From: Nannocystaceae bacterium
Lineage (GTDB): Bacteria > Myxococcota_A > Polyangia > Nannocystales > Nannocystaceae
DNA length: 64,000 nucleotides
Assembly: GCA_041389845.1 (NCBI GenBank)
Contig: JAWKQZ010000037.1
Coordinates: 9,716-73,715, forward strand
Reading direction: 5' to 3'
The position numbers and the translations under genes were made by a program. The notes under the pieces are model-generated. The model worked only from the letters and a program-made list of their open reading frames with translations, did not search any database and was not told the DNA's origin. Positions 3,067 to 64,000 of the stretch are shown in pieces (position 1 is the stretch's first letter; the number at the start of each line of letters is the position of its first letter).

Positions 3067-3079
3067 CCGGGGCCTCTGG

Positions 3080-4054
3080 CTAGGCGCTCGTCGGCGGGGC
3101 GGACTTCTTGCTTGTCGGCTTCTTGGTCGATGACTTCGCCGGCTTCTTGCTCGCCGGCTTCTTGCTCGCCGACTTCGACGTCTTCTTGCTCGCAGACTTC
3201 GATGTCTTGCTGCTCGCAGACTTCGACGCCTTCTTGCTCGACGACTTCTTGCTCGCCGCCTTCGACGACTTCTTGCTCGACGCCTTCTTGCTCGCCGACT
3301 TCGATGCCTTCTTGCTCGCTGCCTTCTTGCTCGCCGACTTCGACGCCTTCTTGCTCGCCGCCTTCTTGCTCGCCGACTTCGACGCCTTCTTGCTCGACGC
3401 CTTCTTGCTCGCCGACTTCTTGCTCGCCGACTTCGACGCCTTCTTGCTCGCCGACTTCGACGCCTTCTTGCTCGCTGCCTTCTTGCTCGCCGACTTCGAC
3501 GCCTTCTTGCTCGATGCCTTCTTGCTCGACGCCTTCTTGCTCGCCGACTTCGACGCCTTCTTGCTCGACGACTTCGACGCCTTCTTGCTCGACGCCTCGC
3601 TCTTCACCCCCGCGGTCTTCGTCACCTTTTTCACCCCCGCGGGCCGCGTCGCCTTCTTCTCCGACTGCTTCGCCGCCCGGATCGCCGCGAGCGCCGCCTT
3701 GTAGGCGCTGGAGAGGGCGTCCGCGAGGTCGTCGTCGCAGTTATCGAAGTAGAATTGGATCATCTCGGAGGCGACCTCTAGGGTGCCGCTGCGGTAGACC
3801 GTGCCGCTGTCGACCATGTAGAGGAAGGCGTCGTAGACCTGGGCGCCGCCCTCGTCGAGCACGTCCCAGATCTCGAGGAAGCCGCGCTGGATCGTCTCAC
3901 CGCTGTCTTCGTCCTCGTCCTGGCCGAAGATCTCCTCGATGGTGGTCTCGTGGCCGCCGTAGAGCTTGTTGGCGTGGACGATCTGCTGGCGCTGGAGCGG
4001 CGTCAGCGAGTCGAGCGTGGGTCGCTCGCGCAGGTTGACGAACGTGAGGGACAT
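3080..4054 (-). CDS. protein with an acidic globular N-domain and a ~190-aa histone H1-like (S/A)KKAS repeat tail
   Basis: From the ATG at 4054: [17 protein letters not shown]...[13 protein letters not shown], followed by [17 protein letters not shown] repeated to the stop at 3080. The upstream part of the 631-aa track ORF is Arg/Gly junk. Confidence 0.75.
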
Positions 4055-4159
4055 CGCGGACCTCCTGGCCCGAGTGTAACAACCCTGCGCCCGCGGGGCG
4101 GGGCGGACTCCGCCGGCGGGCTCCCGCCGCGGCCCGTTTTGGGGTATATCCCCGCGGCG

Positions 4160-5275
4160 ATGACCGCCCGCACCCCGCTCCTGATCCTCTCCGCGCTCTG
4201 GATCTTCGCCGCGTGCACCGGCGAGCCCCCGCAGGTCGGCTACGGCCCGAGCAAGGAGGAGCTCGAGGCGAAGACGCGCGCGAAGCCGATCGAGATCGCC
4301 ATCCCGCCGAAGGGCCCGACCGACGCGCAGGCGAACCAGGCGACGAACCAGGCCCCGCCGACGCGCCCGCCCCCGCAGGCCCCGAAGGTGCTGCCGAAGG
4401 AGCCGAGCCCCGACATCGTCTACCCCGAGCCCTTCAACGGCGCGATCGCGGCCTCGCAGGCGCTCCCCAGCGGGATCAAGGTCGACGACTTCGTCGTCGG
4501 CAGCGGCGCGGAGGCGGTCAAGGGCGCCGAGGTCGAGGTCCACTACACCGGCTACCTCACCGACGGCTCGACCTTCGACTCGTCGATCCCGCGCGGCCGC
4601 CCCTTCCGCTTCGACCTCGGCGCCGGCCGGGTGATCAAGGGCTGGGACGAGGGGATCGCCGGGATGAAGGTCGGCGGCAAGCGACGCCTGATCATCCCCG
4701 CCGAGCTCGGCTACGGCCCCCGCGCGGCCGGCAAGATCCCGCCGAATTCGACGCTGATCTTCACCGTCGAGCTCCTCGGCGTCACCCCGCCCCCGCCGCC
4801 GCCGCAGCCGCTCACCGCCTTCGAGGGGACGCCCGTCAAGACCGCCAAGATCGAGGGGATCGAGCTCGTCGACTACAAGATCGGCACCGGCGCGGCCGCC
4901 AAGGCCGGCGACGAGGTCGAGGTCCACTACGCCGGCACCCTCACCGCCGACGGCACCGAGTTCGACTCCTCGCACCCGCGGATGCGGCCGATCAAGTTCG
5001 TGCTCGGTCGCGGCCAGGTGATCAAGGGCTGGGACCTCGGGATCGAGGGGATGAAGGTCGGCGGCCTCCGCAAGCTGGTGATCCCGGCGGCCCTGGCCTA
5101 CGGCGAGCGGGCGCGCGGGAAGATCCCCGCCAACGCCGACCTGACCTTCCGGGTCGAGCTGATGAGCGCCAAGCCCCTCCCGGCCCCGCCGGCGCCGCCC
5201 ACCCCGATCAAGGCGCCGCCGCCCCGACCAAGGCGCCGCCGCCCCGACCGGAAGGCGCCCGCCGAGGGCCAGTGA
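4160..5275 (+). CDS. lipoprotein with two FKBP-type peptidyl-prolyl cis-trans isomerase domains
   Basis: Lipobox in MTARTPLLILSALWIFAAC. Two copies of the FKBP_C signature (VHYTGYLTDGSTFDSS...VIKGWDEGIAGMKVGG; VHYAGTLTADGTEFDSS...VIKGWDLGIEGMKVGG). Confidence 0.9.
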   Translation: MTARTPLLILSALWIFAACTGEPPQVGYGPSKEELEAKTRAKPIEIAIPPKGPTDAQANQATNQAPPTRPPPQAPKVLPKEPSPDIVYPEPFNGAIAASQALPSGIKVDDFVVGSGAEAVKGAEVEVHYTGYLTDGSTFDSSIPRGRPFRFDLGAGRVIKGWDEGIAGMKVGGKRRLIIPAELGYGPRAAGKIPPNSTLIFTVELLGVTPPPPPPQPLTAFEGTPVKTAKIEGIELVDYKIGTGAAAKAGDEVEVHYAGTLTADGTEFDSSHPRMRPIKFVLGRGQVIKGWDLGIEGMKVGGLRKLVIPAALAYGERARGKIPANADLTFRVELMSAKPLPAPPAPPTPIKAPPPRPRRRRPDRKAPAEGQ

Positions 5276-38005: not shown

Positions 38006-38204
38006 TCCGACGGGCGCCCGGGGGGTCGGCGCGGACGCGTCGGCCGACCCCTCGAGCGGCGAGGCGGGCCCGCGCCCGCTCGGTGCCCTCCTGGCGAGGA
38101 CCGCGATCGCCTCCTCGCCTCGTCACCCTCGCCCCTTCGCCTCGTCACCCTCGCCCCGAACCGACGCTCTGCTCCTTCTCGGCGCGCCCGGACCCAGCGC
38201 GCGA

Positions 38205-38390
38205 GCGACTCTGCCACTCCCCTGAATGGGGGTGCCTCGCCTGCCCCCGATCGACTCTGCCACTCCCCCGAATTGGGGAGACTCGCCTGGCCCCATCCGA
38301 AACGCACACTCCCCCGAATCGGGGAGGCTCGCGAGGCCCCATTCGAAGCGCTCGCTCCCCCGAATCGGGGAGGACCGAGATCACGAGCCT
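38205..38390 (+). repeat. 46-bp tandem repeat x4, each unit carrying a perfect 18-nt hairpin CTCCCC-CGAAT(C/T)-GGGGAG
   Basis: Hairpins at 38217, 38263, 38309 and 38355 (exact 46-bp phasing). Degenerate copies lie near 38421 and 38548. The spacers between hairpins are homologous to each other. Confidence 0.9.
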
Positions 38391-38590
38391 CCCACGCCGC
38401 TCCGGGGCGCGGCGGGCGATTGCCCTCATTCGGGGCAGAGCGCCGCGAATGGCCGCATCGTCGGGATCCCGGGCGCCCTCGGATCCTCAATCGACGTCTC
38501 GCGGAAATAGCCGTCGACACCTCCGCGATCGCGGTGTACACGTACTCCCGGTTTGGGGACCCGCGTAGTCGGGTCGGGAGGGCGTAGGCG

Positions 38591-40213
38591 ATGAGCACTA
38601 TTGCGATCTCGATCGCAGGATTTGCGATCAATGTCACGATCGAGAGCGAGGGTCCGAATGGGATCACCGGCGTCCTCGACCTGACCCGATTCGAGATCGG
38701 CGGCGTCGAGCTCCTCCGGATCTCCTCGGCCACCGATCCGACCCAGGGCGCCCAAATCTCGATGTCGGCCGGATCCAATTGGGGCGCGACGATCACCGGC
38801 GAGATCGCGCTCCTCAACGGCGCGTGGTCGCAGTCCAAGACCTTCGCGGTCGCCCACGACAGCTTCTACGTCGAGCTGCCCTCGCTCGACCTCGGCAGCA
38901 ACGTCGGCCTCGGCGGCTCCTTCGCCTTCGCCGACGGGCAATTCACCGTCGATCTCACCGGCTCGGCCGAGGTCGGCTTCTCCTTCTTCGGCGTCACGGT
39001 CTCGCCGACCTTCGAGCTCACGCTCGGCACCACCATCGTCCCCGGCGCGCCGCCCTCGGTGGTCTACGCGCTCTCCGGGGGCGCCGGCGTCCTCGGGGTC
39101 TCGGTCCCGCTGCCGCCGCCGCCGCTCGCCTCGCCGATCACCTTCGAATCGCCGATCACCTCGGCGGCGGCGATCGGCGCCAAGATCTACGCGATCGCGA
39201 AGGACTTCATCGAGGACGTGATCTGGGACTACCTCCAGCGCTGGGCCCAGGAGCTCGAGAGGGCCGTGATCGCCGGCGCCGAGTTCGTCGCCAACTACGG
39301 CGCGCAGATCGTCGACGCGGTCGGCGACGGGCTGAGCGACCTCTTCGGCTCGTCCGACGACGGTCCGCCGCCGCCGATCCTCCCCAACGCCTTCGCCGAC
39401 GGGACCACGCCGCTCGGCGACGTCGCCCTCCAGTGGGGCCAGGCGTCGATCGCCGTCGACGAGGCCAAGGACTTCGACTTCGTCCGCCCCTTCGGGGGCG
39501 CCGCCGTCGCCGTCGCCCTCTGCGCCGCCCGCTCCGGCGTCCGCTCCGGCCTCTCGGTCAAGTCCCGCGCGAGCACCAAGTTCGTCCTCGACCGCGACAA
39601 CGCGATCGACGGGCTCATCCCCTTCCACTGGCTGGCGCTCGGCGCCGCCCCGGGGCGGACCCTCCCGACCAAGGGCTCGCGGACGATCGGCGACGTCCTG
39701 ATCCAGTGGGGCCGCGAGACCAGCGAGAGCGACGGCGTCCAGGTCTTCTCCCTCTCCTCCGCCTTCAACACCGCGAGCAGGGCCGGCCCGATCGTGATGA
39801 TCACCAACGCCGACACCGGCGGGGTCAAGGGCGCCTTCAACGTCACGACGATCGACGGCGCCGGCAAGACCTTCGCGATCAACCGCGACAACGCGATCGA
39901 CGGCGCGTTCCCGATCACCTACCTGGCGATCGGACCGGCGCCGGGGAAGAAGGTCCCCCAGGGGGTCCTCGCCGTCGACGACTTCCTCCTCCAGTGGGGG
40001 ATCGCCACCACCGACGCCGACGGCGAGCAGCGCTTCCTCTTCCCCCGCGCCTTCAAGACCATGAACTTCGCGGTGGTCACGACGTTCCACGCGGCCAACG
40101 CCCTCTCGGCGCTCTCCCAGTCCCGGCCGATCGATCCGGCGGGGTTCATCCTCGACCGCGACAACGCGATCGACGGCGCCTACTCCTTCTTCTGGGTCGC
40201 CGCCGGTCGGTGA
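38591..40213 (+). CDS. protein with a ~270-aa unknown N-domain plus three tail-fibre-tip-like (gp53-C / H-lectin-like) modules
   Basis: 540-aa ORF with no signal peptide. Three repeats of xxQWG...F..F...(V/I)V...DRDNAIDG..(F/Y)xW(L/V)AxG occupy 39420-40213. Confidence 0.8.
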   Translation: MSTIAISIAGFAINVTIESEGPNGITGVLDLTRFEIGGVELLRISSATDPTQGAQISMSAGSNWGATITGEIALLNGAWSQSKTFAVAHDSFYVELPSLDLGSNVGLGGSFAFADGQFTVDLTGSAEVGFSFFGVTVSPTFELTLGTTIVPGAPPSVVYALSGGAGVLGVSVPLPPPPLASPITFESPITSAAAIGAKIYAIAKDFIEDVIWDYLQRWAQELERAVIAGAEFVANYGAQIVDAVGDGLSDLFGSSDDGPPPPILPNAFADGTTPLGDVALQWGQASIAVDEAKDFDFVRPFGGAAVAVALCAARSGVRSGLSVKSRASTKFVLDRDNAIDGLIPFHWLALGAAPGRTLPTKGSRTIGDVLIQWGRETSESDGVQVFSLSSAFNTASRAGPIVMITNADTGGVKGAFNVTTIDGAGKTFAINRDNAIDGAFPITYLAIGPAPGKKVPQGVLAVDDFLLQWGIATTDADGEQRFLFPRAFKTMNFAVVTTFHAANALSALSQSRPIDPAGFILDRDNAIDGAYSFFWVAAGR

Positions 40214-40255
40214 GCCGGAGCCCCCCATTCAACGATCGATCGCCGAGGTGAGCTC

Positions 40256-41149
40256 ATGGCTGCGACCACCTTCCTGATTCAGATGACCAACGCCTCGAAG
40301 TCGTACCGCAACGGCTTCAAGGACAGCGCCACCGTCGGCGCCCTCAAGATCCAGTGGGGCCAGGACGTCTGCACCTCCGACGGCCTCCAGACCTTCAACT
40401 TCCCCAGCTCGTTCCACTCCGCCTGCTACGCGGTGGTGATCACCTCGTCGCTGCCGAACGCCCGCTCGGGCCTGCCGGTGGTCCTGCGCGAGAAGGGGCG
40501 CTTCGGCGTCGATCGCGACGGCGGCATCGACGGCCCCTACCCCTTCTACTGGATCGCGATCGGCGACGCGAGCGCGACCCCCGAGAGCGGCTCCTTCCTG
40601 CTCCCGGCGGACGAGGACGTCGCCCCCTGGCTCCTCTGGGGCGACCTGGTCAGCAACCTCGACGGCGACCAGAGCTTCACCACCTCGCGGGCGCTCCCCG
40701 CCGGCGCGTCGGCGATCGTGCTCAACACGACCCTCGCCAACCTCCGCAGCGCCCTCCCGGCGACCTCGTTCGACGGGGCGGGCCGGTCGCTGAGGGTCAA
40801 CCGCAACAACGACATCAACGGCTCGGTCGGCTTCTCCTACCTCGCCCTCGGCGGCGCCGCGACCGGGGCGCCCAACAGCGCGAGCGCGGCGGTCGCCCAC
40901 TTCGCCCAGGCGGGGTTCAAGATCCAGTGGGGCCGCTCGCGCAGCACCTCGGACTACGAGGAGCTCTTCATGCTCCCCGAGGCCTTCGCCGACATGAACT
41001 TCGCGGTGGTGACCGCCCTCAACACCTCGGGTCACCGCGCCGGGCTCGCGCTGAGCCGGCCGGTGAACCCCCGCTCCTTCATCGTCGATCGCGCGGGCGG
41101 CGACATCGACGGGCAGCGCGACTTCTACTGGATCGCCGTCGGCCGCTGA
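40256..41149 (+). CDS. protein made of three tail-fibre-tip-like modules (paralogue of the C-half of 38591..40213)
   Basis: 297-aa ORF starting 42 bp after the previous stop. KIQWG...FNFPSSFHSACYAVVIT...VDRDGGIDGPYPFYWIAIG, with two more copies ending FSYLALG and FYWIAVGR. Confidence 0.8.
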   Translation: MAATTFLIQMTNASKSYRNGFKDSATVGALKIQWGQDVCTSDGLQTFNFPSSFHSACYAVVITSSLPNARSGLPVVLREKGRFGVDRDGGIDGPYPFYWIAIGDASATPESGSFLLPADEDVAPWLLWGDLVSNLDGDQSFTTSRALPAGASAIVLNTTLANLRSALPATSFDGAGRSLRVNRNNDINGSVGFSYLALGGAATGAPNSASAAVAHFAQAGFKIQWGRSRSTSDYEELFMLPEAFADMNFAVVTALNTSGHRAGLALSRPVNPRSFIVDRAGGDIDGQRDFYWIAVGR

Positions 41150-41270: not shown

Positions 41271-44267
41271 GTGTTCAGCTTCGTCCGCCGGGGGAGCGAG
41301 CCGATGGCATCTCAGGGATCGTCGTCCAAATTCGTCGTCGTCGCCGCCCTCGCGATCGGCGGCGGCCTCCTCTGGTGGCTCCTCGGCCGCGCCGATCCGG
41401 AGGCGACGACCGAGCCGATCGCCGACGGGGCCGGGGCCCGCCCGGACGACGCCCGCCGCCGCGGCCTCGAGCTCGCGCTGCGGCCGGGCGCCGCCGCCGA
41501 GCTCCGCCTCGCTCGGCGGGCGTCGATCACCGGGACGATCCGCGACGACGGGGGCGAGCCGATCGCCGGCGCCCGGGTCTGCGCGCTCGTCCGCTCGTGG
41601 GTCCTGCCGAGCGTCGACACCCAAAACGCCCGCTGCAGCGAGAGCGAGGCCGACGGCCACTACCGGATCGACGACCTCTTCCCGGTCCGCCACGAGGTCG
41701 TCGCCAGCGCGCCCACCTTCATCGCCGGCGCGTACAAGCAGGACGAGGGCGGACGCCGCAGCGGCACCGTCAGCCTCCAGCCGGGGATGGAGGCCCGCGA
41801 CATCGACATCACCCTCCGCGGCGGCGGCGTCGAGCTCCGCGGCGTCGTCAAGGATCTCAGCGGCGGCGCGGTCGAGGGCGCCCAGGTCTCGACCGAGCAC
41901 GCCGTCGGCTTCAGCGGGGCGGAGGGCGTCTTCTCGCTCTGGGTGGCGCCGGGGGAGCGCTGGGTCAACGCCCACGCCGAGGGCTACGCCGGCGCCAACG
42001 ACGGCGGCGTCGTCCCGGGCCACGAGTACCAGCTCTACCTCACCCCGGAGGCCGCGCTCGTCGGCAAGGTCGTGCGGGCCGAGGACGGCGCGCCGGTGGA
42101 GGGCGTCACCGTGACCTCGAGGTCGGGGATGGGCTGGAGCTGGAACAGCCAGAGCGCGATCACCGACGCCGCCGGCCGCTTCCGCCTCGGCGGCCTCGAG
42201 CCGGGGGCCTACAAGGCCGAGGCGACCGGCGACGAGGTCTACGGCCTCGCCGACGAGCAGGTGATCCTCGGCCTCGGCGAGACCTCGGATCCGCTCACGG
42301 TCCGCGTCCACCCGGCGTTCTCGGTCCGCGGGTCGGTGCTGACGAAGAGCGGCGAGTCCTGCGAGGACGGGTGGCTCGAGCTCGACGATCACGCCGACGC
42401 CCGGAGCAACAACGGCGCGATCGAGCCGGACGGCGCGGTCCAGGTCCGCGGCCTCCTCCCCGGCGAATATCAGGTGAGCGTCCGCTGCCCCGGCAAGGTC
42501 CCCGCCGAGCGCTACGATCGGGTGACGGTCGTCGATCGCAGCCTCGAGGGCCTCCGCTGGGAGGTCGGGGACGGCCACGCGCTCCGCGGCCGCGTCGTCG
42601 ACAGCCGCGGCGAGCCGGTGCCCGCGATCAACGTCCGCGCCGAGGCCAAGCTCGCGGCCGGCCAGGGCCGCGCCCAGGCGACCAGCGCCTGGTCGGGGCG
42701 CACCGACGCCGACGGCCGCTTCGAGCTCCGGGGCCTCCTCGCCGGCAACTACGACGTCCGGGCGTCGTCGTGGAGCCCGGGGCGGGCGGTCCCGCTCGAG
42801 CCCCTCAAGGTCACCTTGCCCGAGGGGAGGGACCTCGACGGCCTGAAGATCGAGCTGCCGGCGACCGGCGAGCTCCGCGGGCGCCTCGTCGACACCGAGG
42901 GGCGCCCGATCCCCCGGGCGTCGGTCTCGCTGCGGAACGGCCTCGACTGGCGGGGCTGCAGCGTCACCGACGACGGCGCCTTCTCGGCCCAGGATCTCCG
43001 CCCCGGCACCTACCGGGCGGTCGCCACCGTCGACGGCAACAGCCTCCGGAGCCCCGGGACCAGCGACGACGACGTCCAGGGCGAGCGGATCGAGATCGTC
43101 GAGGGCGAGGTCGCGAACCTCGAGCTGGTGGTCGAGAACGCGACCGGGGTGATCCGCGGGGTCGTCCGCGACGAGGACGGGGGCCCGGTCGCCGACGCCT
43201 TCGTCGAGTCCAGCCGCGAGCCCGAGCGCGCCGGGGCGGCGAGCGGCGCGGCGGCCCGCTCGAACCGCTGGGGCTCCTTCAGCGGCGACCCGATCCTCAC
43301 CGACGCCGACGGCCGCTTCACGATCCCGCGGATCGCCGGCAAGCACACCCTCCTCGCCCACCGCAAGGGCGGCGGCGAGGCGATCCTCGAGCACGTCGCC
43401 GCCGGCGACGACGTGGTCCTGACGATCGCCGCGACCGGGCGGCTGAGCGGCACCGTCACCCTCGCCGGCGGCGGCGCGCCGGAGGAGTTCTCCCTTGCCG
43501 CCGTCGACGAGGCGACCGGCCTCAGCCGCCGCGACTCGTTCTTCCGCAGCGGCGGCGCCTGGAGCCTCGCCGAGATCCCGGCGGGGACCTACAAGATCCA
43601 GGTCAACAGCGGCCCGGGCTCGGCCGAGACCGAGGCGACGATGGTCGCCGGCCGCGACACCGAGGGGATCACGATCGAGCTCGCGCCCAAGGTCACCGTC
43701 CGCGGCCTGATCGTCGACGCCGAGGGGGCGCCCCTCGAGGGGATGTACGTCGCCATCAGCGGCATGGGCCGGGGCTACGCGGGCGACGACGACGACAAGC
43801 AGAACGTCACCGACTCGAGCGGCCGCTTCGAGGTCAAGAAGGCGTCGACCGGCAGCGTCTTCATCTCGGTCTCGTCGCGGGTGAGCGACGACTACGAGTG
43901 GACCCGGGTGCCGGTGATGATCGCCGCCGACGCGCCGGTCGCCGAGCTCGCGCCGATCCAGGTCCTCCGCAGGCGGGTCGAGCGCGGCAAGGTCGCCGGT
44001 GACCTCGGCTACACCCTGAAGGACCCGGACCCCGGCGCCGATCCGATGGAGCGCACCTTCGTCGTCGCCTTCATCCGCCCCGGCGGCCCCGCGGCCAAGG
44101 CCGGCCTCCAGGTCGGCGACGAGATCGTCACCGTCGACGGCGTCGACGTCCGCGGCGGCCGGAACTACCTCTACTCGGGGCTGACCCGGGTGAAGGTCGA
44201 CACCACGATCGCCCTCGGCCTCGCCCGCGGGGCGATCGTCCAGGTGACCGCGGAAGAGCGACCCTGA
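41271..44267 (+). CDS. membrane-anchored giant protein: ~9-10 carboxypeptidase-regulatory-like domains plus a C-terminal PDZ
   Basis: N-terminal TM segment FVVVAALAIGGGLLWWLL. Recurrent (L/I)RG.V.D..G.P(V/I)..A.V ... TD..GRF.L.GL.PG.Y units. PDZ-like tail FIRPGGPAAKAGLQVGDEIVTVDG. Confidence 0.85.
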   Translation: MFSFVRRGSEPMASQGSSSKFVVVAALAIGGGLLWWLLGRADPEATTEPIADGAGARPDDARRRGLELALRPGAAAELRLARRASITGTIRDDGGEPIAGARVCALVRSWVLPSVDTQNARCSESEADGHYRIDDLFPVRHEVVASAPTFIAGAYKQDEGGRRSGTVSLQPGMEARDIDITLRGGGVELRGVVKDLSGGAVEGAQVSTEHAVGFSGAEGVFSLWVAPGERWVNAHAEGYAGANDGGVVPGHEYQLYLTPEAALVGKVVRAEDGAPVEGVTVTSRSGMGWSWNSQSAITDAAGRFRLGGLEPGAYKAEATGDEVYGLADEQVILGLGETSDPLTVRVHPAFSVRGSVLTKSGESCEDGWLELDDHADARSNNGAIEPDGAVQVRGLLPGEYQVSVRCPGKVPAERYDRVTVVDRSLEGLRWEVGDGHALRGRVVDSRGEPVPAINVRAEAKLAAGQGRAQATSAWSGRTDADGRFELRGLLAGNYDVRASSWSPGRAVPLEPLKVTLPEGRDLDGLKIELPATGELRGRLVDTEGRPIPRASVSLRNGLDWRGCSVTDDGAFSAQDLRPGTYRAVATVDGNSLRSPGTSDDDVQGERIEIVEGEVANLELVVENATGVIRGVVRDEDGGPVADAFVESSREPERAGAASGAAARSNRWGSFSGDPILTDADGRFTIPRIAGKHTLLAHRKGGGEAILEHVAAGDDVVLTIAATGRLSGTVTLAGGGAPEEFSLAAVDEATGLSRRDSFFRSGGAWSLAEIPAGTYKIQVNSGPGSAETEATMVAGRDTEGITIELAPKVTVRGLIVDAEGAPLEGMYVAISGMGRGYAGDDDDKQNVTDSSGRFEVKKASTGSVFISVSSRVSDDYEWTRVPVMIAADAPVAELAPIQVLRRRVERGKVAGDLGYTLKDPDPGADPMERTFVVAFIRPGGPAAKAGLQVGDEIVTVDGVDVRGGRNYLYSGLTRVKVDTTIALGLARGAIVQVTAEERP

Positions 44268-46260: not shown

Positions 46261-46491
46261 TGCCGCGCCGAAACAATGAACCTGTCCCTTTAGACAGGAA
46301 TCTCTCTCGGGCGATGTAGGCGACCGAACAACGGAGGAGGGCGCGGTGGTCCTCGTTCTCGGACCGGATCCGGCGCTCCGGCGCCCGCCTCCGCCGACGT
46401 CCACGGGGTGCGTCGCTCGATCGACGGGGCTCCTCGCCGATCTTGTCGCCGCGTCGCCGCGTCGATACGCTCGACGGTCGGAGGTTGGAGG

Positions 46492-47934
46492 ATGGGTATG
46501 AGGCACAATGGAACTCTCTTGGTGTTCGCGCTGCTGACGGCGGCTTGCGGCGACGACTCGGCGGTCGACACCGACACGAGCCCGACCACGAGCACGACGA
46601 CGACGACGACGACGACGACGTCCACGACCGGCGACACGACCACCGGCGAGGCGACGACCGCCAGCGACACGACGACCACCAGCGACACGACGACCACCAG
46701 CACGTCGACCACCAGCAGCGAGTCGACGACGACCTCGGCGGTGAGCGACACGCTCCCGTCCACCACCGAGGAGCCGCCGATCCCCTTCTGCGGCGACGGG
46801 ATGATCGATCCGGGGGAGGAGTGCGACGACGGCCCCGACAACGATGACACCAAGGCGTGCACCGCCGCGTGCACCACCGCGGCCTGCGGCGACGGCCTGG
46901 TCCAGGAGGGCGTCGAGGCCTGCGACGACGGCAACGACGACGACACCGACGCCTGCACCAGCGCCTGCGTCCCGGCGGCCTGCGGCGACGGACTGGTCCA
47001 GGAGGGCGTCGAGGCCTGCGACGACGGCAACGACGTCGACACCGACGCCTGCCTCTCCAGCTGCGTCGAGGCGAGCTGCGGCGACGGCATCGTCCAGGAG
47101 GGGGTCGAGGCCTGCGACGACGGCAACGACGAAGACCTCGACGCGTGCTCGAACGCCTGCGGGCTGCCCTCGTGCGGCGACGGGGTCAAGCAGCAGGACG
47201 AGGAGTGCGACGACGGCAACATGGTCGAGACCGACGCGTGCACCAACGCCTGCCTGAGCGCCAAGTGCGGCGACGGCGTGGTCCAGATGGGCGTCGAGCA
47301 GTGCGACGACGGCAACATGGTCAACACCGACGCGTGCCTCAACACCTGCGTCAACGCCAAGTGCGGCGACGGCGTGGTCCAGGCCGGCGTCGACGAGTGC
47401 GACGACGGCAACATGGTCAACACCGACGCGTGCCTCAACACCTGCGTCAACGCCAAGTGCGGCGACGGCGTGGTCCAGACCGGCGTCGAGCAGTGCGACG
47501 ACGGCAACATGGTCAACAACGACGGCTGCACCAACATGTGCACCACCGGCCCCACCTGCGGCAACCTCCTCACCAACTGGAACGGCTGGAGCTACTACAA
47601 GGTGACGGTCAACGGGACGATGAACGACAACAACGTCCGCGCGGCCTGCGAGGCCTGCGGGCTCACGGTCCCCTGTCAGGCGCTGCAGGGGTGCACCTAC
47701 AACGACAACATCTGCCTCCAGACCTCCAACGAGACCTCCTGCGGCAACCCGATGCTGAACATGGCCCAGTTCCTCTGCAACGGGAGCTCGCCGCCGAGCT
47801 GCCCGCAGGTCTACAACACCTATCAGTACATGGGAAACAACTGGCTCGGCGCGTGCGGGGCCAAGGCCAACCAGTGGTGCGTGATCGGCCAGAATGAGGC
47901 CAACCAGGACGCGCTCTGCGTCCTCCCGAAGTGA
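46492..47934 (+). CDS. lipoprotein with a Thr-rich linker, ~8 Myxococcus-type cysteine-rich repeats and a Cys-rich C-domain
   Basis: MGMRHNGTLLVFALLTAAC lipobox after a GGAGG-like RBS. Repeats CGDG.VQ.GVE.CDDGN...TDAC...C. A unique 130-aa C-terminal domain. Confidence 0.85.
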   Translation: MGMRHNGTLLVFALLTAACGDDSAVDTDTSPTTSTTTTTTTTTSTTGDTTTGEATTASDTTTTSDTTTTSTSTTSSESTTTSAVSDTLPSTTEEPPIPFCGDGMIDPGEECDDGPDNDDTKACTAACTTAACGDGLVQEGVEACDDGNDDDTDACTSACVPAACGDGLVQEGVEACDDGNDVDTDACLSSCVEASCGDGIVQEGVEACDDGNDEDLDACSNACGLPSCGDGVKQQDEECDDGNMVETDACTNACLSAKCGDGVVQMGVEQCDDGNMVNTDACLNTCVNAKCGDGVVQAGVDECDDGNMVNTDACLNTCVNAKCGDGVVQTGVEQCDDGNMVNNDGCTNMCTTGPTCGNLLTNWNGWSYYKVTVNGTMNDNNVRAACEACGLTVPCQALQGCTYNDNICLQTSNETSCGNPMLNMAQFLCNGSSPPSCPQVYNTYQYMGNNWLGACGAKANQWCVIGQNEANQDALCVLPK

Positions 47935-53547: not shown

Positions 53548-54957
53548 TCACGGGCTGACCCCGGGGTCGGCGCAGGTGAGGGTGAACGCGGTGACCCCGG
53601 GCCCGAGGTCGACGCGGTAGCGGATCGGGATGGTCCCGGGGTAGGCGAGGCAGTCGATCTTCGGCAGGTTCATCCCCTTGGGCATGCCGATCGGCGGGAG
53701 CATCACCGGCCCCTGGGTCACCACCTGGTAGACCCCGTCGACCGGCTTGAGGAGGACCTCGGCGCACTGGAGGCCGACCTCGGTGACGCCGTTGCCGGTG
53801 GCCCAGCCGCCGAAGGACACCAGGAGGGTGGTCGGGTCGTCACAGGAGGCGCCGTAGTTGATGTAGTTGACGGGCGAGTAGCCGTTGGGCGGGCCGGGGT
53901 AGTTGGCGCCGGCCTGGCGGAGGCGGAAGATCCCGCCGCCGGTCGGCTCGATCATGAGATCGGCGCAGCGGGCGACGACGTTGGCGTAGACGTCGTTGTC
54001 GGTGTCGTAGAGGACGTCGAAGCCGACCGGCGCGCCGTCGCACTGGCTGTAGCCCTGGATGCCGCCGCCGCCGGGGCCGAAGGCCGCGGAGTCGCCGGCC
54101 TCGATCGGCTCGCCGAGGCTCGGCGGCAGGACGCAGAGGGTGGTGCACTCGTCGTCGTCGACGTCGTTGCCGTCGTCGCAGAACTCGTTGGGATCGACGA
54201 CCCCGTCGCCGCACTTCTCGGACTTGCAGTCCTTGTTGCAGCCGTCGCCCTCGATCAGGTTGCCGTCGTCGCACTCCTCGAGGAGCCCGAGCACGCCGTC
54301 GCCGCAGACGTTGATCTTGCACACCCCGGTGCAGGTGCCGCCGACGCCGTTCTGGGCCCCGTCGTCGCACTCCTCGCTGTCCTGGAGGATCCCGTCGCCG
54401 CAGGCGGGGAGCGTGCAGGCGTCGGTGCAGAGGTCGTCGTCGACGTCGTTGCCGTCGTCGCACTCCTCGCCGACGTCGACCGCCCCGTCGCCGCAGTAGG
54501 GCGCGTCGTCGGTGTCGACGCCGGTGCTCTCGGTCGTCGTCGTGGTGGAGGTCGTCGACGTGCTCGTCGGCTCCGCGGTCGTGATCGTGGTCGCGTCGGT
54601 CGTCGTCGCGTCGGTCGTCGTCGCGTCGGTCGTCGTCGCGTCGGTCGTCGTCGTGGTCGCGGCGGTCGTCGGCGCCTCGGTGGTCGCGTCGCTGGTCGGG
54701 TCGATGTAGTCGGGGTTGCCGACCAGGCACGCGCACGCGAGCGCGCCGACGCCGGCGAGGAGCGAGACGGGGAGCGCGCTGCGGAGCGCCCTGGGGTGCG
54801 AGCTGCCGAGCGAGCTGCCGAGCGAGCTGCCGAGCGCCCTGCCGAGCGAGCGGCCGAGCGCCCTGGGGTGCGAGCTGCCGAGCGCCCTGGGGTGCGCGCT
54901 GCCGAGCGCCCGGCCGAGCGAGCGCGAAGCCGTGTACGGAGCCTTCCGCGAAGCCAT
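53548..54957 (-). CDS. lipoprotein with a Thr-rich linker, Myxococcus-type cysteine-rich repeats and a distinct C-domain
   Basis: The only in-frame start is the ATG at 54957. A long repeat-containing n-region (LGSS/HPRALG) precedes LLAGVGALACAC. Repeats YCGDGAVDVGEECDDGNDVDDDLC... Confidence 0.8.
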   Translation of the reverse strand: MASRKAPYTASRSLGRALGSAHPRALGSSHPRALGRSLGRALGSSLGSSLGSSHPRALRSALPVSLLAGVGALACACLVGNPDYIDPTSDATTEAPTTAATTTTTDATTTDATTTDATTTDATTITTAEPTSTSTTSTTTTTESTGVDTDDAPYCGDGAVDVGEECDDGNDVDDDLCTDACTLPACGDGILQDSEECDDGAQNGVGGTCTGVCKINVCGDGVLGLLEECDDGNLIEGDGCNKDCKSEKCGDGVVDPNEFCDDGNDVDDDECTTLCVLPPSLGEPIEAGDSAAFGPGGGGIQGYSQCDGAPVGFDVLYDTDNDVYANVVARCADLMIEPTGGGIFRLRQAGANYPGPPNGYSPVNYINYGASCDDPTTLLVSFGGWATGNGVTEVGLQCAEVLLKPVDGVYQVVTQGPVMLPPIGMPKGMNLPKIDCLAYPGTIPIRYRVDLGPGVTAFTLTCADPGVSP

Positions 54958-57500: not shown

Positions 57501-60500
57501 TCAGGGCAGCTCGGCGGCGAAGCGGGCGAGCGCCGGCCGGGCGAGGACGACGTCGCGGATCAGGAGCGGGCTCTCGCAGCGGGCGTGGGCGGCGAGGACG
57601 TGGGCCCGGGCGTCGTCGAGGTCCCCGCGCTCGGCGGCGAGGACCGCGAGGTCGAGGCGGAGGAGCCAGGGGTCCTCGCCCTCGCTCCCGAGGGCGTCGG
57701 TGAGGGCGAGGGCGCGCTCGAGATCGGCGCGGGCGAGGTCGGGCTCGCCGGCGCGAGCGAGGGCGCGGCCCCGCCACACCAGGAGCTCCCGGGCCCGCGC
57801 CCGGATCCGCGGGCTCTCGGCGTCGACCCCGAGGGTGGCGGCGTCGAGGCCCCGGAGGAGCACGAGGAGGGCGGCGCGCGCCGCCGGATCGTCGAGGTGG
57901 TTGATCGCCGTGTTACGCCAGCTGGCGACCAAGAGCTCGAGGGCCCGGTCCGGATCGAGCTCGCGGATCAGCGGCCAGTGGAGGGTCGGGTGGCCGCGGA
58001 GGAGGGTGGCGACCGGCGCCATCGCCAGCGTGGGATCGGCGAGGAGCTCCGCCCAGGCGTCCCGGGCGTCGGCGAGGCGGCCGACCAGGACGAGGGCGTG
58101 GACCCGCCAGAGGCGCTCCTCCGGCGTCCGCGCCGGGAGCTCGCCCTCGGCCGCGAGGAACGCGACCGGATCGCCGTCGACGAGGGCGCGGCGGAGGGCG
58201 ACCCGCGGATCGGCGGCCGGCGGCGCGCCGATCCGGAAGCCCCGCAGGCGGAGCCGCTGGAGGGAGAGGGCGAGCCAGGCCGGGGTTTCGACGGGGGCGT
58301 CGACCCACGCCGACGCGTCGCCGAGGGCGCGGAGGGAGAGGCGGTAGCGCCCGGCGGGCGGGGCGGCGGCGTGCCGGAGGTGGGCCCGCCGCGGCTCCTG
58401 GCCGTCCTCGGCGAGGTCGCACCCCGACTCGCCCAGGGTCGGCAGCCCGTCGAGGCGGAGGGTGAGCCGGCGAGCGGCGAGGTCGGCGGTGTTGTCGACG
58501 ATCGCCCGCTCCCCGGGGACGTGGCAGGTGATCACCCGGCGGACGCTGACGCCGCCGCGGCTGGTGCCGTGGGTGGTCACGTCGAGCGCCAGGATCGGCC
58601 GCTCCGGGTCGTCCTCGGGGGCGAGGAGGAGCTCGAAGCGGCTCCGCCACTCGGTCTGGTCGAGGGTGAGCTCGACCTCGAGCTCGAGCACCTCCCCCGC
58701 GCTCTCGAGCGGCAGGGTCGCCAGGAGCCCCGAGGACGCGGTGGCGATCGAGAGGCCGTCGCCGCCCGGCGCGTGGGCGAGGGCGAGGGGGTCGTGGAGG
58801 GTCCAGGCGGGGCCGAGGGGGCGGCGGAGGTCGATCTCGATCGCCTCGTCGCCGCCGACGGCGAGCGGCGCGTAGCGACGGGCGAGCGCGCGGGCCTCGG
58901 GGTCGACCTCGGCGAAGTCGGCGAGGGCGGCGAGGGCCTCGCGGGCCTGGTCGTAGTCGCCGAGGCGGAGCTCGGCCCGGGCGATCCGGAGGCGGGCGGA
59001 CGACGCCAGCTCCGGCGCCCGCGCGGCGGCCTGGAAGAGGGGGATGGCCCGGCGCTCGTCGCCCGCGCGCTCGAAGAGGTCGCCGGCGACGAGCGACGCC
59101 TCGGCCCGGGCGGCGGCCGACGGGGCCCGACGCGCGAGGTCGACGAAGGCGTCGCCGGCGGCGCGATGGAGGCCGAGGTCGGCGAGGGCGCGGGCGCGGT
59201 CGCGGGCCGGCGCCCAGGTGGGGTCGTCGAGGTCCGCGGGCGACCCGTCCCCGGCGCCGCCCGACGCGGAGACCTCGGCCACCCCGCCGCCGACCCCGAC
59301 CGGCTCCAGCGGGCGCTCTCCGGCGCCGAGGACGACGACGCGGGGACCGACCGCCCCCTCGCCCGGGAGCTCGGCGATCACCTCGGCCATCGGGTCGTCG
59401 TCGACGTCGGCGAGCCCGAGGAAGCAGAGGTCGCCGAGGACCACGGGCGTCCACCCGCCGTCCGCCCCCTGGACGTAGACGAGGGTGTGCACGCGGTCGC
59501 CGACCCGGAGCGCGACCGCGATCTCGCCGAGGCCGTCGCCGTCGAGGTCGGCGGCCTGCGGCGACTCGAGGACGCCCGCGAGCGCGGCGCCCGCGGGCAG
59601 CGGCAGCGGCGGCCGACGCTGGCCCCGGAGCCCGCGCTCGAGGTCGTAGACGTAGATCCCGGGCGGCTCGCCGGAGCGCCGATCCGGGGGGAAGACCAGC
59701 GGGCTCTCCTCGACGGCGAGGTTCTTGACCGCGAGGAGCTGGGCGCCGCCGGGGCCGCGGACGAGGGCGGGGCTGAGGACGACGCCGAGCTTGTCGCGAT
59801 CGACCAGCTCCAGGGCCCCTCCGCGGCCGAGGCGGAGGATCCGGAGGTCGTAGGCCCGCCAGCCGGTGAAGGTGGCGATGAGCTCGTCCTGGCCGTCGCC
59901 GTCGACGTCGACGGGGAGGAGGCCGTGGGCCGCCGACTCGAGGGTCTGATGGGCGTCGTGGACCACCCGCGAGGTCCAGACGCCGTCGGCCCCGGGGGTG
60001 AGGGCGAGGATCTCGAGGTCGACGGTGCCGACGTAGACCTCGACGACGCCGTCCCGATCGAGATCCGCGGCCGCGCCGCTGACCGCGACGTCGCCGTCCC
60101 AGCGGAAGATCGGCGTCGGCCCCTCGTCGCCCATCCGCACCAGGGCGTGGGTCGTCGTCGCCTCGCGGTCGAAGAAGATCGCCAGCGGCGCCCCCCCGAC
60201 CACCACCACGTGGTCGGTCCCCTCCGGCACGGGCGACCGCCACCGCGTCGGCAGCCCGGGCGCCCGGTCGGCGAGGGTGATCGCCGCGGGCTTCGCCCCC
60301 GCCCACTCGACCAGGGCGACCCGGTCGCCGGCGACGTGGACCGAGCGGACGCCGCCGTGGGGCGTGGGGGTGGCCCCCTGGAGGGCGCCGACCAGGGCCC
60401 GGACCGGGGCCGGGGCGCCGCGCCCCCGGCGCGCCGGGGGGCCGCCGAGGTCGCGGCGGCCGAGGGCGGCGGCGATCCGGAGCGCCGCGAGGTCACGGGC

Positions 60501-60605
60501 CGCCCCCCGGAGGTCGCGGTCGCGGTCGACGAGGTCGAGGACCGCGGCCAGCGCCGCCCAGTCGAGCTGCTCCCGGAAGATCGCCGCCAGCCCCGAGAGC
60601 GCCTC
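57501..60605 (-). CDS. FG-GAP/VCBS-like repeat plus TPR-like module (probably the C-terminal 1000 aa of the upstream kinase gene)
   Basis: Real part of the 2128-aa track ORF. DLDRDGVVEVYVG, VDVDGDGQDELIA, ADLDGDGLGEIAV and ADVDDDPMAEVIA are Ca-binding-like loops, followed by helical TPR-like repeats. No plausible start codon lies at its 5' end. Confidence 0.8.
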   Translation of the reverse strand, partial: EALSGLAAIFREQLDWAALAAVLDLVDRDRDLRGAARDLAALRIAAALGRRDLGGPPARRGRGAPAPVRALVGALQGATPTPHGGVRSVHVAGDRVALVEWAGAKPAAITLADRAPGLPTRWRSPVPEGTDHVVVVGGAPLAIFFDREATTTHALVRMGDEGPTPIFRWDGDVAVSGAAADLDRDGVVEVYVGTVDLEILALTPGADGVWTSRVVHDAHQTLESAAHGLLPVDVDGDGQDELIATFTGWRAYDLRILRLGRGGALELVDRDKLGVVLSPALVRGPGGAQLLAVKNLAVEESPLVFPPDRRSGEPPGIYVYDLERGLRGQRRPPLPLPAGAALAGVLESPQAADLDGDGLGEIAVALRVGDRVHTLVYVQGADGGWTPVVLGDLCFLGLADVDDDPMAEVIAELPGEGAVGPRVVVLGAGERPLEPVGVGGGVAEVSASGGAGDGSPADLDDPTWAPARDRARALADLGLHRAAGDAFVDLARRAPSAAARAEASLVAGDLFERAGDERRAIPLFQAAARAPELASSARLRIARAELRLGDYDQAREALAALADFAEVDPEARALARRYAPLAVGGDEAIEIDLRRPLGPAWTLHDPLALAHAPGGDGLSIATASSGLLATLPLESAGEVLELEVELTLDQTEWRSRFELLLAPEDDPERPILALDVTTHGTSRGGVSVRRVITCHVPGERAIVDNTADLAARRLTLRLDGLPTLGESGCDLAEDGQEPRRAHLRHAAAPPAGRYRLSLRALGDASAWVDAPVETPAWLALSLQRLRLRGFRIGAPPAADPRVALRRALVDGDPVAFLAAEGELPARTPEERLWRVHALVLVGRLADARDAWAELLADPTLAMAPVATLLRGHPTLHWPLIRELDPDRALELLVASWRNTAINHLDDPAARAALLVLLRGLDAATLGVDAESPRIRARARELLVWRGRALARAGEPDLARADLERALALTDALGSEGEDPWLLRLDLAVLAAERGDLDDARAHVLAAHARCESPLLIRDVVLARPALARFAAELP

Positions 60606-60825
60606 GCCCGCTGCTCGGCCCGCTGGGCCCGGAAGTAGCCGGCGGCGAGGGCCGCGAGGGCGCCCTCCCGATCGTCCGCCCCCGCCGCCGCCCCGCCTCC
60701 GCCAGCCAGGCGCTCGCCAGGGCCGCGGTGCCCTCCTGGAGCGGGTCGTCGACGAAGGCCTGGAAGATCCGGTCGGCCGCGGCCGCGTCGCCCTCGGCCC
60801 GGGCCTCGGCGATCCGGGCCTCCCG

Positions 60826-62290
<1,465 letters not shown>

Positions 62291-62332
62291 CCTCCGACGC
62301 GTCCGTCAAGCGCCCATAGCGCCCTACACCCC

Positions 62333-63772
62333 TCAGCCGATCTCGAACTTCTTGAGGAGGCGCTTGAGCTGGTGCCGGCTCTGGAGCCGGAGGACCCGCC
62401 AGGCCCGCTCCCGGACCCCGTCGCAGGCGTCGAGGGCGGCGACGATCTCCTCCCGGGTCAGCGACTCCGGCTGGGTGTGGGGCGCGAGGGCCCGGGGCGC
62501 CGGTCGGGGCTCGGCGATCGACGGGCCGATCGTCGGCCCCTCCCCCTGGGTCAGCGCGTCCCAGAGCGCCGCCCGGAGCTCGCGGAGGTGGCCTCCGTAG
62601 TCGCGGTAGAGGAGCGAGGCCATCCACCCGGCGGCGATCCGGGGCTCGCCGCCGGCGGTGAAGAAGCGGGCCCGGAGCTCGGGGTGCTCGTCGCCGATCC
62701 GGCGGAGGAGGTGGCGGGCGAGGAGGGGCACGTCGCCGCGGCGCTCCTCGAGGCCGGGGACCGCGATCCGGTGGATGAAGCGGGTGAGGAGGTCGTGCTT
62801 GAGCGCCTCCGGCGGCCGGTTGGTCGCGCCGTAGAGCCGCAGGTCCGAGGCCCGCCGCCGATCCTCGCCGAGGCGCTGGTACTCGCCGTGGTCCATCACC
62901 CGCATCAGCCGGGCCTGGAGGGGGTGGGCGAGCTCGCCGAGCTCGTCGAGGTAGAGCGCGCCGCCGTCGGCCTCGCCGCAGAGGCCGACCCGCTCGGGCG
63001 CGCCCGGGGTCGGGTAGTCGTGGACGTTGCCGAAGAGCTCGGCGTCGATCCAGGCGTCGGGGATGGTCGCGGCGCTGCGGCTGATCAGCGGCTGCTTCGC
63101 CCGCGCCGACGCGGCGTGGAGCGCCCGCACCACCAGCTCCTTGCCGACGCCGGTGGGGCCGTGGACGAGGACGTGCTCGCGGCGGGGGCCGATCGCGGCG
63201 ATCTGGCGGCGGAGCGCCCAGGCGGCCGGCGACTCGCCGACGATCCCGTCGGGGTCGGCCTCGCCGAAGGCGAAGGCGCCGCGGAGCGCCGCCCCCCAGG
63301 CGCCGCCGTTCGGCCAGGCGGCGGGGCGGGTCGCCACCCGGAGGGCGAAGCGACCGACCGCCTCGAGGATCGCCCCCGGGTCGGCGATCGCCCGGTCGAT
63401 CGGGTGGCCGTCGATCCGCAGCTCGCCGGAGCCGAGGCGCTCGACCGAGAGCCCGCCGTCGAGGAGCGAGACCCGGAGGTGCCGCCGCGAGACCCGGGCG
63501 TCGCGGAGCGGCCCGGTGTCGACCCGCTCGAAGGGGCGGAGCTGGCAGAGCACCAGCGGCAGGTCGCCCTCGTCGCCGGCCTCGACCGCGCGACCGATCG
63601 TGAAGGGGACGTGGAGGGCCCCGCGCGGGAGGCAGTAGACCTCGCCGACCCGCGACGGCTCCTCGCTCGACCACACCAGCTCGAGCACCGGGGCGCGGGC
63701 CGCCGCCGCGCCCCCCTCGTCGCGGGTCGGGGCGCCGCCGAGGGTCGACTCGTCCGGGTCGCGCAGGGGCAC
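62333..63772 (-). CDS. FHA-domain AAA+ enhancer-binding-protein-like regulator with a C-terminal HTH (GAFTGA motif absent)
   Basis: FHA-like TIGR...VSRRHLRV...LGSGELRIDG. Walker A HGPTGVGKE. Walker B GALYLDELGEL. Arginine-finger region YGATNRP...LLTRF. Fis-like tail RAWRVLRLQSRHQLKRLLKKFEI. Confidence 0.88.
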   Translation of the reverse strand: MPLRDPDESTLGGAPTRDEGGAAAARAPVLELVWSSEEPSRVGEVYCLPRGALHVPFTIGRAVEAGDEGDLPLVLCQLRPFERVDTGPLRDARVSRRHLRVSLLDGGLSVERLGSGELRIDGHPIDRAIADPGAILEAVGRFALRVATRPAAWPNGGAWGAALRGAFAFGEADPDGIVGESPAAWALRRQIAAIGPRREHVLVHGPTGVGKELVVRALHAASARAKQPLISRSAATIPDAWIDAELFGNVHDYPTPGAPERVGLCGEADGGALYLDELGELAHPLQARLMRVMDHGEYQRLGEDRRRASDLRLYGATNRPPEALKHDLLTRFIHRIAVPGLEERRGDVPLLARHLLRRIGDEHPELRARFFTAGGEPRIAAGWMASLLYRDYGGHLRELRAALWDALTQGEGPTIGPSIAEPRPAPRALAPHTQPESLTREEIVAALDACDGVRERAWRVLRLQSRHQLKRLLKKFEIG

Positions 63773-64000
63773 GGGCGAGGACTCTACCGCAACCGCGCTC
63801 GGCTGCCTCGGGGCGCCGGCCCCCTCCCCTCGCGGGATCCCGAGGGCGCGCCCGTGATCCCCCGCGGGTGGCCGCGGCCCGCCTCACGCGCGCGTCGACG
63901 CGAGCGGCCCGCGGCCGCGATCACGCGCGCGTCGACGCGATCACCCGCGGCCCGACGCGCGCTCGCGGGCGATCGCAAGGAGCCGGCGCCCGGTCGGGCG

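Follow-up and report, generated by a model that had tools for sequence, protein, structure and literature searches.

A conserved two-gene cassette of leaderless proteins with three gp53-like tail-fibre-tip modules each, from a Nannocystaceae bacterium

INTRODUCTION

The head of the phage protein gp53 and the foot of the R-type pyocins are homotrimers with folds resembling those of discoidins and H-type lectins; the trimeric, discoidin-like pyocin foot has been proposed to bind the core of lipopolysaccharide (LPS). In the trimers of H-type lectins the ligand pockets are situated at the interfaces of neighbouring protomers (PMC6048534; bioRxiv 10.64898/2026.06.18.733164). Here we describe two adjacent genes, designated L and S, whose products carry three gp53-like modules each in a single chain. 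They are located in a 64 000-nt stretch of DNA from a bacterium of the Nannocystaceae, a family of marine myxobacteria (GenBank assembly GCA_041389845.1, contig JAWKQZ010000037.1, positions 9716 to 73 715 of the forward strand); this whole stretch is called below the window. We followed up an earlier reading of the window made from the letters alone (the sequence-only reading).

Several other described proteins offer points of comparison. PCSK9 and APCβ are described as making up a subgroup of two, each with one prism that is built from three direct repeats and has pseudo-threefold symmetry within itself (PMC6294395). Discoidins are leaderless, cytosolic, unconventionally secreted and present in a social bacterial predator (bioRxiv 10.64898/2026.06.18.733164). 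The bacteriocins LlpA and pyocin L are made of tandem lectin modules (~280 aa), mostly without a Sec signal; they bind LPS sugars, and the route of their release is unknown (PMC6240691). Tandem internal repeats of ~66 aa are described for the myxobacterial hemagglutinin MBHA of the OAA lectin family (PMC8166773).

RESULTS

Domain identity of the modules

The pair consists of two open reading frames (ORFs) on the same strand, with a spacing of 42 bp.

38591..40213, + strand: gene L, 540 aa, identical to NCBI R3B09_17905; orphan N-terminal region, PPPP hinge and three Gp53-like_C modules
40256..41149, + strand: gene S, 297 aa, identical to NCBI R3B09_17910; head-only paralogue of L

The sequence-only reading had seen six modules in these ORFs; the ORF calls, together with motif search and alignment, by which the modules were located, bore this out, and both module strings quoted as examples were found verbatim.

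39416..39646, + strand: module L1, L residues 276-352 (motif positions and class analysis)
39686..39934, + strand: module L2, L residues 366-448 (motif positions and class analysis)
39974..40210, + strand: module L3, L residues 462-540; the best Pfam stretch of L is 465-539
40337..40567, + strand: module S1, S residues 28-104; the best Pfam stretch of S is 32-103
40619..40855, + strand: module S2, S residues 122-200 (motif positions and class analysis)
40910..41146, + strand: module S3, S residues 219-297 (motif positions and class analysis)

Pfam family PF21882 (Gp53-like_C) matched L with 59.7 bits over three stretches and S with 63.7 bits over two stretches (cut-off 24.9), and it was matched by homologues of L and S as well. 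As these scores are far above the cut-off, the repeats are not a product of chance. The modules are gp53-like C-terminal tail-fibre-tip domains, the very domain that the sequence-only reading had named; in NCBI the Enhygromyxa proteins bear the label ‘gp53-like domain-containing’. Tail-fibre families of PHROGs matched L and S more weakly than PF21882. The NCBIfam model NF012201 (WIAG-tail domain) reached 17.9 bits, below its cut-off of 33. The Pfam scan gave no match of L or S to B_lectin (PF01453), and no shaft, collar or fibre N-domain families were detected in the two proteins by Pfam and PHROG scans.

When a profile of the modules was compared with the PDB sequences, the sole matches were in the R2 pyocin fibre; they were weak (E 0.12 and 0.56) and fell within the foot domain of the fibre (chain residues 298-325; IRQWGQVTCPADADASITFPIPF). 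A single-sequence search of the PDB with S returned a chance match only. A profile of the 24-module alignment returned nothing from an index of 5.8 billion proteins, family members included, and this search is uninformative. Among phage proteins, a 270-aa protein of a Vibrio phage showed 36.5% identity over one C-terminal module; below significance we saw a Fels-2 gpH-like protein as well as Serratia and Yersinia tail proteins, with a single C-terminal module in each. These phage relatives are distant and carry one module per protein. A full-text literature search for gp53-like proteins or PF21882 brought up no publication about bacterial proteins of this kind.

Both genes have a Shine-Dalgarno-like GGAGG/GAGG sequence 7-8 nt 5′ of the ATG. 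A stop codon stands directly 5′ of the L start codon (the stop-to-stop ORF begins at 38588), while the in-frame stretch before the start of S comprises 14 codons, none of them a start codon. With no room for an upstream extension of either ORF, L and S cannot carry a signal peptide; the sequence-only reading, which had noticed none in either protein, was right in this respect. The homologues have the MxxxxIG N-terminus and the same start in common.

The three-module array as a unit

Every L homologue and every S homologue has exactly three modules. Mean identity between modules at the same position of L and S was 0.41, 0.39 and 0.45 for positions 1, 2 and 3, respectively, with 0.30-0.37 for off-position pairs, and each position has signatures common to its L and S modules: a Cys in class 1 (with no more than one conserved Cys per module, in class 1 only); GP, a small insertion and a Tyr that replaces the Trp of WIAxG in class 2; MNF and SR[PA]I in class 3. 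Since each L module is closest to the S module of the same position, the array was duplicated as a block, the three-module array is the ancestral unit and the positions are not equivalent. The three modules per chain are thus a fixed, position-differentiated unit, which the earlier reading had not recognised.

S is homologous to L from approximately residue 256 onward, colinear with it and 36-42% identical to L heads; S is, therefore, essentially L minus its N-terminal region. Concerted evolution of the L and S heads was considered and rejected: the L head is 36% identical to its own S versus 39-42% to S proteins of other genomes. Given that its own S is not nearer to the L head than those of other genomes are, the duplication must be old and free of gene conversion.

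Predicted structure of the head

From 8 sequences AlphaFold produced a compact model of S (mean predicted local distance difference test, pLDDT, 79.7; predicted TM-score, pTM, 0.84); a pTM of 0.84 is expected only if the three modules have a fixed packing. In Foldseek searches against the PDB single modules matched the R2/R1 pyocin fibre with probability 0.98-1.00 and 20-26% identity over 90-96 columns. This check, AlphaFold followed by Foldseek on a single repeat, had been proposed along with the tail-fibre idea, and its outcome agrees with it. Viral proteins with a gp53-like C-terminus (BFVD) matched the modules at a probability of 0.99-1.00. The match of discoidin I to the model was weak (probability 0.14).

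For the whole chain of S, the V-domain of PCSK9 (probability 0.92, TM-score 0.40/0.49) and apicomplexan APCβ (probability 0.90 and 0.80) were among the top-ranked Foldseek matches. The likeness is one of predicted architecture, not demonstrated common descent. The model of L has a pLDDT of 67, and its head gives the same Foldseek matches as S. The BFVD entry UPI001E6AE1CA_1 aligned over 296 columns with a root-mean-square deviation (rmsd) of 4.0, so some viral protein may also hold several modules per chain.

Taking these models together, each of the two proteins is most likely a single-chain, pseudo-trimeric copy of a trimeric fibre tip. A module count fixed at three would follow from the binding of H-type lectin ligands at trimer interfaces.

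Distribution of the cassette

The L+S pair, in the same order, was found in eight independent loci: the window's metagenome-assembled genome, three Enhygromyxa genomes and four metagenome contigs (the loci being the window, L001/L011, L009, L010, L002, L004, L014 and L015). Wherever the contig is long enough, S starts 18-40 bp 3′ of L (42 bp in the window). The 5.8-billion-protein index contained five other clusters for L and eight for S. The family is carried by 3 of 185,579 species-representative genomes, all labelled Enhygromyxa salina, and by one JGI metagenome contig; no relatives of L or S were present in 2.9 million viral contigs (IMG/VR).

Of ten other window genes tested, which cover ~7 kb to the left and to the right of the pair, not one has a counterpart at another pair locus, and the Pfam content of the flanks is different at every locus. 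L and S are a portable, autonomous two-gene cassette, another feature that the sequence-only reading had missed. That reading had left room for an ordinary phage remnant, to be recognised by prophage or tailocin genes flanking the pair in related genomes; the flanks of the seven other loci contain no phage genes by Pfam.

The contig of locus L014 has 41.6% G+C versus 67-73% for the other pair loci, which implies that the cassette stayed together, or travelled as one piece, in genomes that differ widely. The complete pair is situated at 2629-5126 of this contig; its neighbours are unrelated (a GNAT acetyltransferase and unknowns).

A lineage of short contigs (L005-L008) has an S-type gene alone. 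In L005 the gene upstream of it (1-396) ends in a MYXO-CTERM-like sorting tail (GGCACDTGAGAGAGGLLALGLLGLRRRRR), which confirms the myxobacterial origin of that contig. One further protein, P0015 (183 aa), is encoded at 24-575 of an 808-bp contig (L013, GCA_009612955.1); it has a signal peptide, one CarboxypepD_reg domain and one S3-type module with 64% identity to S residues 223-297. P0015 may be a genuine secreted fusion, or an assembly chimera of a SusC-like leader and a myxobacterial-type module.

Selection and composition

For pairs with unsaturated synonymous sites, the ratio of non-synonymous to synonymous substitution rates (dN/dS) was 0.23-0.33 for both genes; values for distant pairs, saturated under the extreme bias in G+C of third codon positions (GC3), were discarded. 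This purifying selection indicates that L and S are functional genes rather than decaying remnants. GC3 of the two genes is 0.96-0.98 (0.96 for L), equal to that of the neighbours.

The N-terminal region of L

Three segments precede the head of L.

38591..39160, + strand: orphan domain, L residues 1-190; beta-rich, a meander of ~16 strands in the AlphaFold model, pLDDT 52-79
39164..39343, + strand: helical segment, L residues 192-251; conserved DYLLxWA and GxQIVDA, pLDDT <50 from residue 218
39365..39376, + strand: PPPP hinge, preceded by a Gly/Ser-rich stretch; L residues 259-262, invariant in 9/9 aligned homologues

The beta-rich N-domain had been called unplaceable in the sequence-only reading, and so it stayed: the N-terminal region of L had no match in Pfam, PHROGs, NCBIfam or, by profile search, the PDB, and its 260 aa found six representatives among 1.84 billion proteins, all of them of the L family. 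The strands of the N-domain are long, amphipathic and Gly/Ser/Thr-rich. Two candidate identities were rejected: a degenerate module array (probability 0.2% in hhalign against the module profile), and a porin or TonB receptor, for which the Foldseek matches to the L model had rmsd >20 Å and low probability. In the L orthologues at L009 (8329-9981), L010 (8305-9981) and L004 (556-2202), one loop of the N-domain holds low-complexity inserts of 25-35 residues (Gly/Asp/Glu/Ser), which are absent from L of the window.

Sequence upstream of L

We noticed one candidate cis element close to the start of L.

38534..38541, no strand: palindrome GTGTACAC, TGTACA-type; candidate for a conserved cis element, ~56 nt before the start of L

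TGTACA occurs only three times in the 64 kb window. A palindrome of this type is present 48-68 nt upstream of L in six of the eight loci, in exact form in the window, L009 (at -68) and L010 (-50) and as a variant in L011 (-49), L004 (-48) and L015 (-67); it could represent an operator, or an element of the promoter, that has been conserved. No sigma-54 promoter was found upstream of L in the eight loci, and a sigma-70 promoter scan gave none. Terminator-like sites were unconvincing, with none between S and the next gene.

Between L and the glutathione S-transferase gene that precedes it we observed a 46-nt tandem repeat of 3.5 copies (38215-38373, + strand; Tandem Repeats Finder score 174). 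Each unit bears the palindrome CTCCCCCGAATCGGGGAG, with four copies exactly 46 nt apart versus 0.01 expected by chance, and the RNA fold z-score of the region is -3.4. A related inverted half-copy lies at 38423-38443, and another repeat (22 nt, 2.3 copies) at 38107-38157. The 46-nt element is absent from all 15 loci examined.

Genomic context

The window has a G+C content of ~73%. Genes were called by third-position G+C; ~30 were scanned against Pfam, those left unannotated also against PHROGs. The neighbours of the pair are ordinary cellular genes: SelO, an aldolase-dehydrogenase fusion, a glutathione S-transferase, an AraC regulator and a glyoxalase, with DUF4215 proteins, a GAF-cyclase, an OPT transporter and exonuclease VII as further neighbours. 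No capsid, tail, baseplate, tailocin, integrase or lysis families were found among the ~30 scanned window ORFs, the 56.5-62.3 kb interval not being covered; outside this interval the claim of the sequence-only reading that no phage genes surround the pair stands. The 64 kb window contains no tRNA genes and no Rfam matches, and PADLOC models gave no match at E <= 0.1 to L, S or the downstream gene.

41271..44267, + strand: downstream giant protein, 998 aa; N-terminal membrane anchor, nine CarboxypepD_reg domains, C-terminal PDZ

This gene starts 121 bp after S in the same orientation. In Enhygromyxa SWB007 a gene for a T2SS-C/PDZ protein lies upstream of the pair, probably by coincidence. Two proteins with DUF4215 cysteine-rich repeats are encoded no more than 8 kb apart, at 46408-47934 (+) and 53548-54957 (-). 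The long ORFs at 57585-60638 and 60728-64000 (+) matched neither Pfam nor PHROGs, and their first-position G+C is 0.95-0.97; they are probably shadows of genes on the - strand, e.g. a sigma-54 activator at 62333-63883.

DISCUSSION

Proposed role of L and S

On balance, and with moderate confidence, we think that L and S are leaderless, domesticated lectin-like proteins that form an autonomous cassette and have pseudo-trimeric glycan-binding heads. The sequence-only reading, which spoke of domesticated or independent binding proteins, went in the right direction; no phage context was found in the scanned genes of the eight loci. According to the models, the three tandem Gp53-like_C modules would fold into one globular head per chain with pseudo-threefold symmetry, so that a single chain would reproduce the head for which the fibres of phages and pyocins need three. 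With ligand pockets at the module interfaces the full set of three would be needed, and the fusion would let the three pockets diverge.

The class of ligand, the localisation of the proteins and the roles of the N-domain and of S we infer as follows. The heads would bind a polysaccharide or glycolipid on a cell surface, of the cell's own matrix or of other bacteria. The N-terminal region of L, attached via the flexible PPPP hinge, may contribute a further activity (for example, it may anchor the protein, mediate oligomerisation or be an effector), and S, the head-only paralogue, may act beside L or modulate it. Both proteins could act in the cell; alternatively, they could leave it non-classically, in the manner of discoidins, LlpA bacteriocins and myxobacterial lectins.

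A number of observations weigh against this interpretation. The pseudo-trimer rests on an AlphaFold model from 8 sequences, with packing judged from its pTM and its structural matches. The whole-chain TM-scores for PCSK9 and APCβ range from 0.29 to 0.49, all <0.5, and the best whole-chain E-value belongs to an oligosaccharyltransferase subunit (6c26; probability 0.57, rmsd ~22 Å), a poor superposition; AP22 gp53 (4MTM) is absent from the top 50 Foldseek matches. The H-type lectin fold, also mentioned in the sequence-only reading, fits as far as the founding gp53 structure and the R-pyocin foot share that fold class, while the Pfam H_lectin model gave no match to L or S at E <= 1. Trimers of H-type lectins can be repurposed for peptides, as in CofB-CofJ (PMC6048534). 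No export route for L or S is evident. Finally, in phage receptor-binding proteins the tip varies most, as the gp53 and pyocin papers describe, and the reverse is seen here: the head evolves more slowly than the N-terminal half of L, which has ~2x the amino-acid changes, and the most conserved parts of the modules are the putative distal loops S-T-S-D-G-D-Q and D-R-D-x-x-I-D-G. Such conservation could reflect a structural role of these residues, or a ligand other than a variable glycan.

Alternative explanations

It is fairly unlikely, in our estimate, that the genes encode a lectin-targeted toxin pair, with L a leaderless bacteriocin-like or predation toxin whose head docks on a target glycan while its N-domain damages the envelope, and with S a decoy or immunity factor acting on the same ligand or capping L. 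S occupies the usual place of an immunity gene, 42 bp downstream and always co-inherited, and the producers are predatory myxobacteria. Lectin-like bacteriocins are also leaderless tandem-lectin proteins in variable loci (PMC6240691); on the other hand, G+C of LlpA genes is below that of the host (PMC6240691), whereas GC3 of L and S is host-like. Among solved structures, the module's nearest relative belongs to a killing particle, being its LPS-binding foot; the whole-chain match APCβ is the membrane-targeting domain of a pore-former, and the N-domain has long, amphipathic strands rich in Gly, Ser and Thr; still, that domain shows no similarity to toxin or pore-forming families, and its porin-like Foldseek matches combine low probability with very large rmsd. 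Conservation is higher in the head than in the N-domain, and the head lacks hypervariable loops, unlike arms-race receptor binders; L and S have no matches to PADLOC models or toxin-type Pfam families. We give an equally small chance to the broader idea of a new class of leaderless, lectin-guided antagonism system in marine myxobacteria, in which the single-chain tip would direct a hitherto unknown, beta-rich killing or membrane-active domain of L to other cells and S would be a built-in decoy or antidote.

The heads may instead be intracellular and bind protein, the pseudo-trimer interfaces holding a peptide or protein and L and S serving as cytosolic adaptors or sensors, e.g. of phage or other foreign proteins; this we judge unlikely. 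It agrees with the impossibility of a signal peptide and with loops that are conserved rather than hypervariable, and there are precedents in the H-type lectin trimer of CofB, which holds a peptide in the former sugar pocket (PMC6048534), and in discoidins as cytosolic lectins sensing invaders (bioRxiv 10.64898/2026.06.18.733164). In Enhygromyxa SWB007 the pair adjoins SIR2/CHAT/nSTAND genes typical of defence islands; however, such defence-like neighbours are found in only one of the eight loci, PADLOC gives no match and there is no conserved partner gene.

We find it very improbable that L and S are phage-related parts, either a decayed remnant of a prophage or tailocin or fibres for a tailocin or contractile injection system encoded elsewhere. 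The module family otherwise occurs at the C-terminus of phage and pyocin tail fibres, and UPI001E6AE1CA_1 (BFVD) aligns over 296 columns (rmsd 4.0). Nevertheless, phage families are missing from the scanned ORFs of the 64 kb window, which also has no tRNA gene, and from the seven other loci, as are relatives from 2.9 million viral contigs; the ORFs are intact, under purifying selection and host-like in GC3; shaft, collar, baseplate-attachment region and chaperone gene are lacking; and a single-chain head would be ill-suited to a threefold fibre.

The suggestion of the sequence-only reading that L and S do the sensing or targeting for a system with the 998-aa, membrane-anchored CarboxypepD_reg (nine copies)/PDZ protein, in favour of which one could cite the common orientation, the start 121 bp after S and the fusion of CarboxypepD_reg to an S3-type module in P0015, is hardly credible and largely refuted by synteny: the order of the pair is kept in the eight loci, yet a counterpart of the 998-aa gene adjoins it at none but the window, and P0015, on its 808-bp contig with a SusC-like leader and a myxobacterial-type module, may be a chimera.

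Significance

If the model of the head holds, a natural homotrimeric phage receptor-binding tip has been turned into a single-chain pseudo-trimer, freed from shaft and chaperones, with three pockets diverging. This would be one way for bacteria to domesticate parts of phage adhesins, and it would offer a compact monomeric scaffold for engineering glycan binders. Were the antagonism idea true, the cassette would be a miniaturisation of tailocin targeting in one polypeptide. The orphan N-domain and the strict pairing of L and S point to an undescribed activity in understudied predatory marine bacteria. We regard the importance as moderate, not fundamental, given that the domain family is already annotated and that the function is deduced.

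Comparison with known systems

The gp53 head of phage AP22 (4MTM) is the founder of PF21882; like the modules of L and S, it belongs to this Pfam family and is an eight-stranded lectin-type beta module with the IQWG...F.WIAxG layout. The AP22 protein has one module per chain, a coiled-coil handle and a homotrimeric assembly on the virion, whereas in L and S three modules share a chain, with neither a handle nor a phage. Among solved structures the R-type pyocin foot (PA0620; 6CL6, 6CT8, 6CXB) comes closest to a single module of L or S. It forms a homotrimer at the end of a long fibre, and between its subtypes the distal loops are hypervariable, while in L and S the corresponding loops are conserved best. 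H-type lectins (Helix pomatia agglutinin, discoidin I/II) have their fold class in common with gp53 and the pyocin foot, according to the papers on the latter two; they are GalNAc/Gal-binding homotrimers of single-module chains, in contrast to L and S with three modules per chain and no H_lectin match. The H-type lectin trimer of CofB, a minor pilin of type IVb, holds the N-terminal peptide of its partner at the interfaces (PMC6048534); CofB is a homotrimer at the pilus tip in a Sec-dependent pilin context, and the L+S pair has no pilus genes.

The PCSK9 V-domain and APCβ, among the top-ranked matches to the S and L models, fold three direct repeats of one chain into a globular beta-prism. They are disulfide-stapled double-layer prisms, unlike L and S, whose modules have no more than one conserved Cys, and they are not related to L and S in sequence. 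LlpA resembles L and S as a leaderless tandem-lectin protein encoded by stand-alone genes in varied loci, a functional resemblance only; it differs in having two B-lectin (PF01453) domains, G+C below the host's, a frequent position as cargo of tailocin clusters and no paired paralogue. MBHA, a developmental cell-surface lectin, is unrelated to L and S in fold and sequence family, has four repeats and is encoded by a single gene.

Finally, a phage or tailocin tail fibre has one tip module per chain, C-terminal to a trimeric shaft, as well as an N-terminal region for attachment to the baseplate, and its gene lies among tail, baseplate, chaperone or lysis genes, whereas the L+S cassette has three modules per chain and, in L, an orphan N-domain. 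The domain family is already annotated; what is new in comparison with all these systems is the fixed three-in-one-chain architecture, the strict pair of a long and a short gene and the orphan N-domain.

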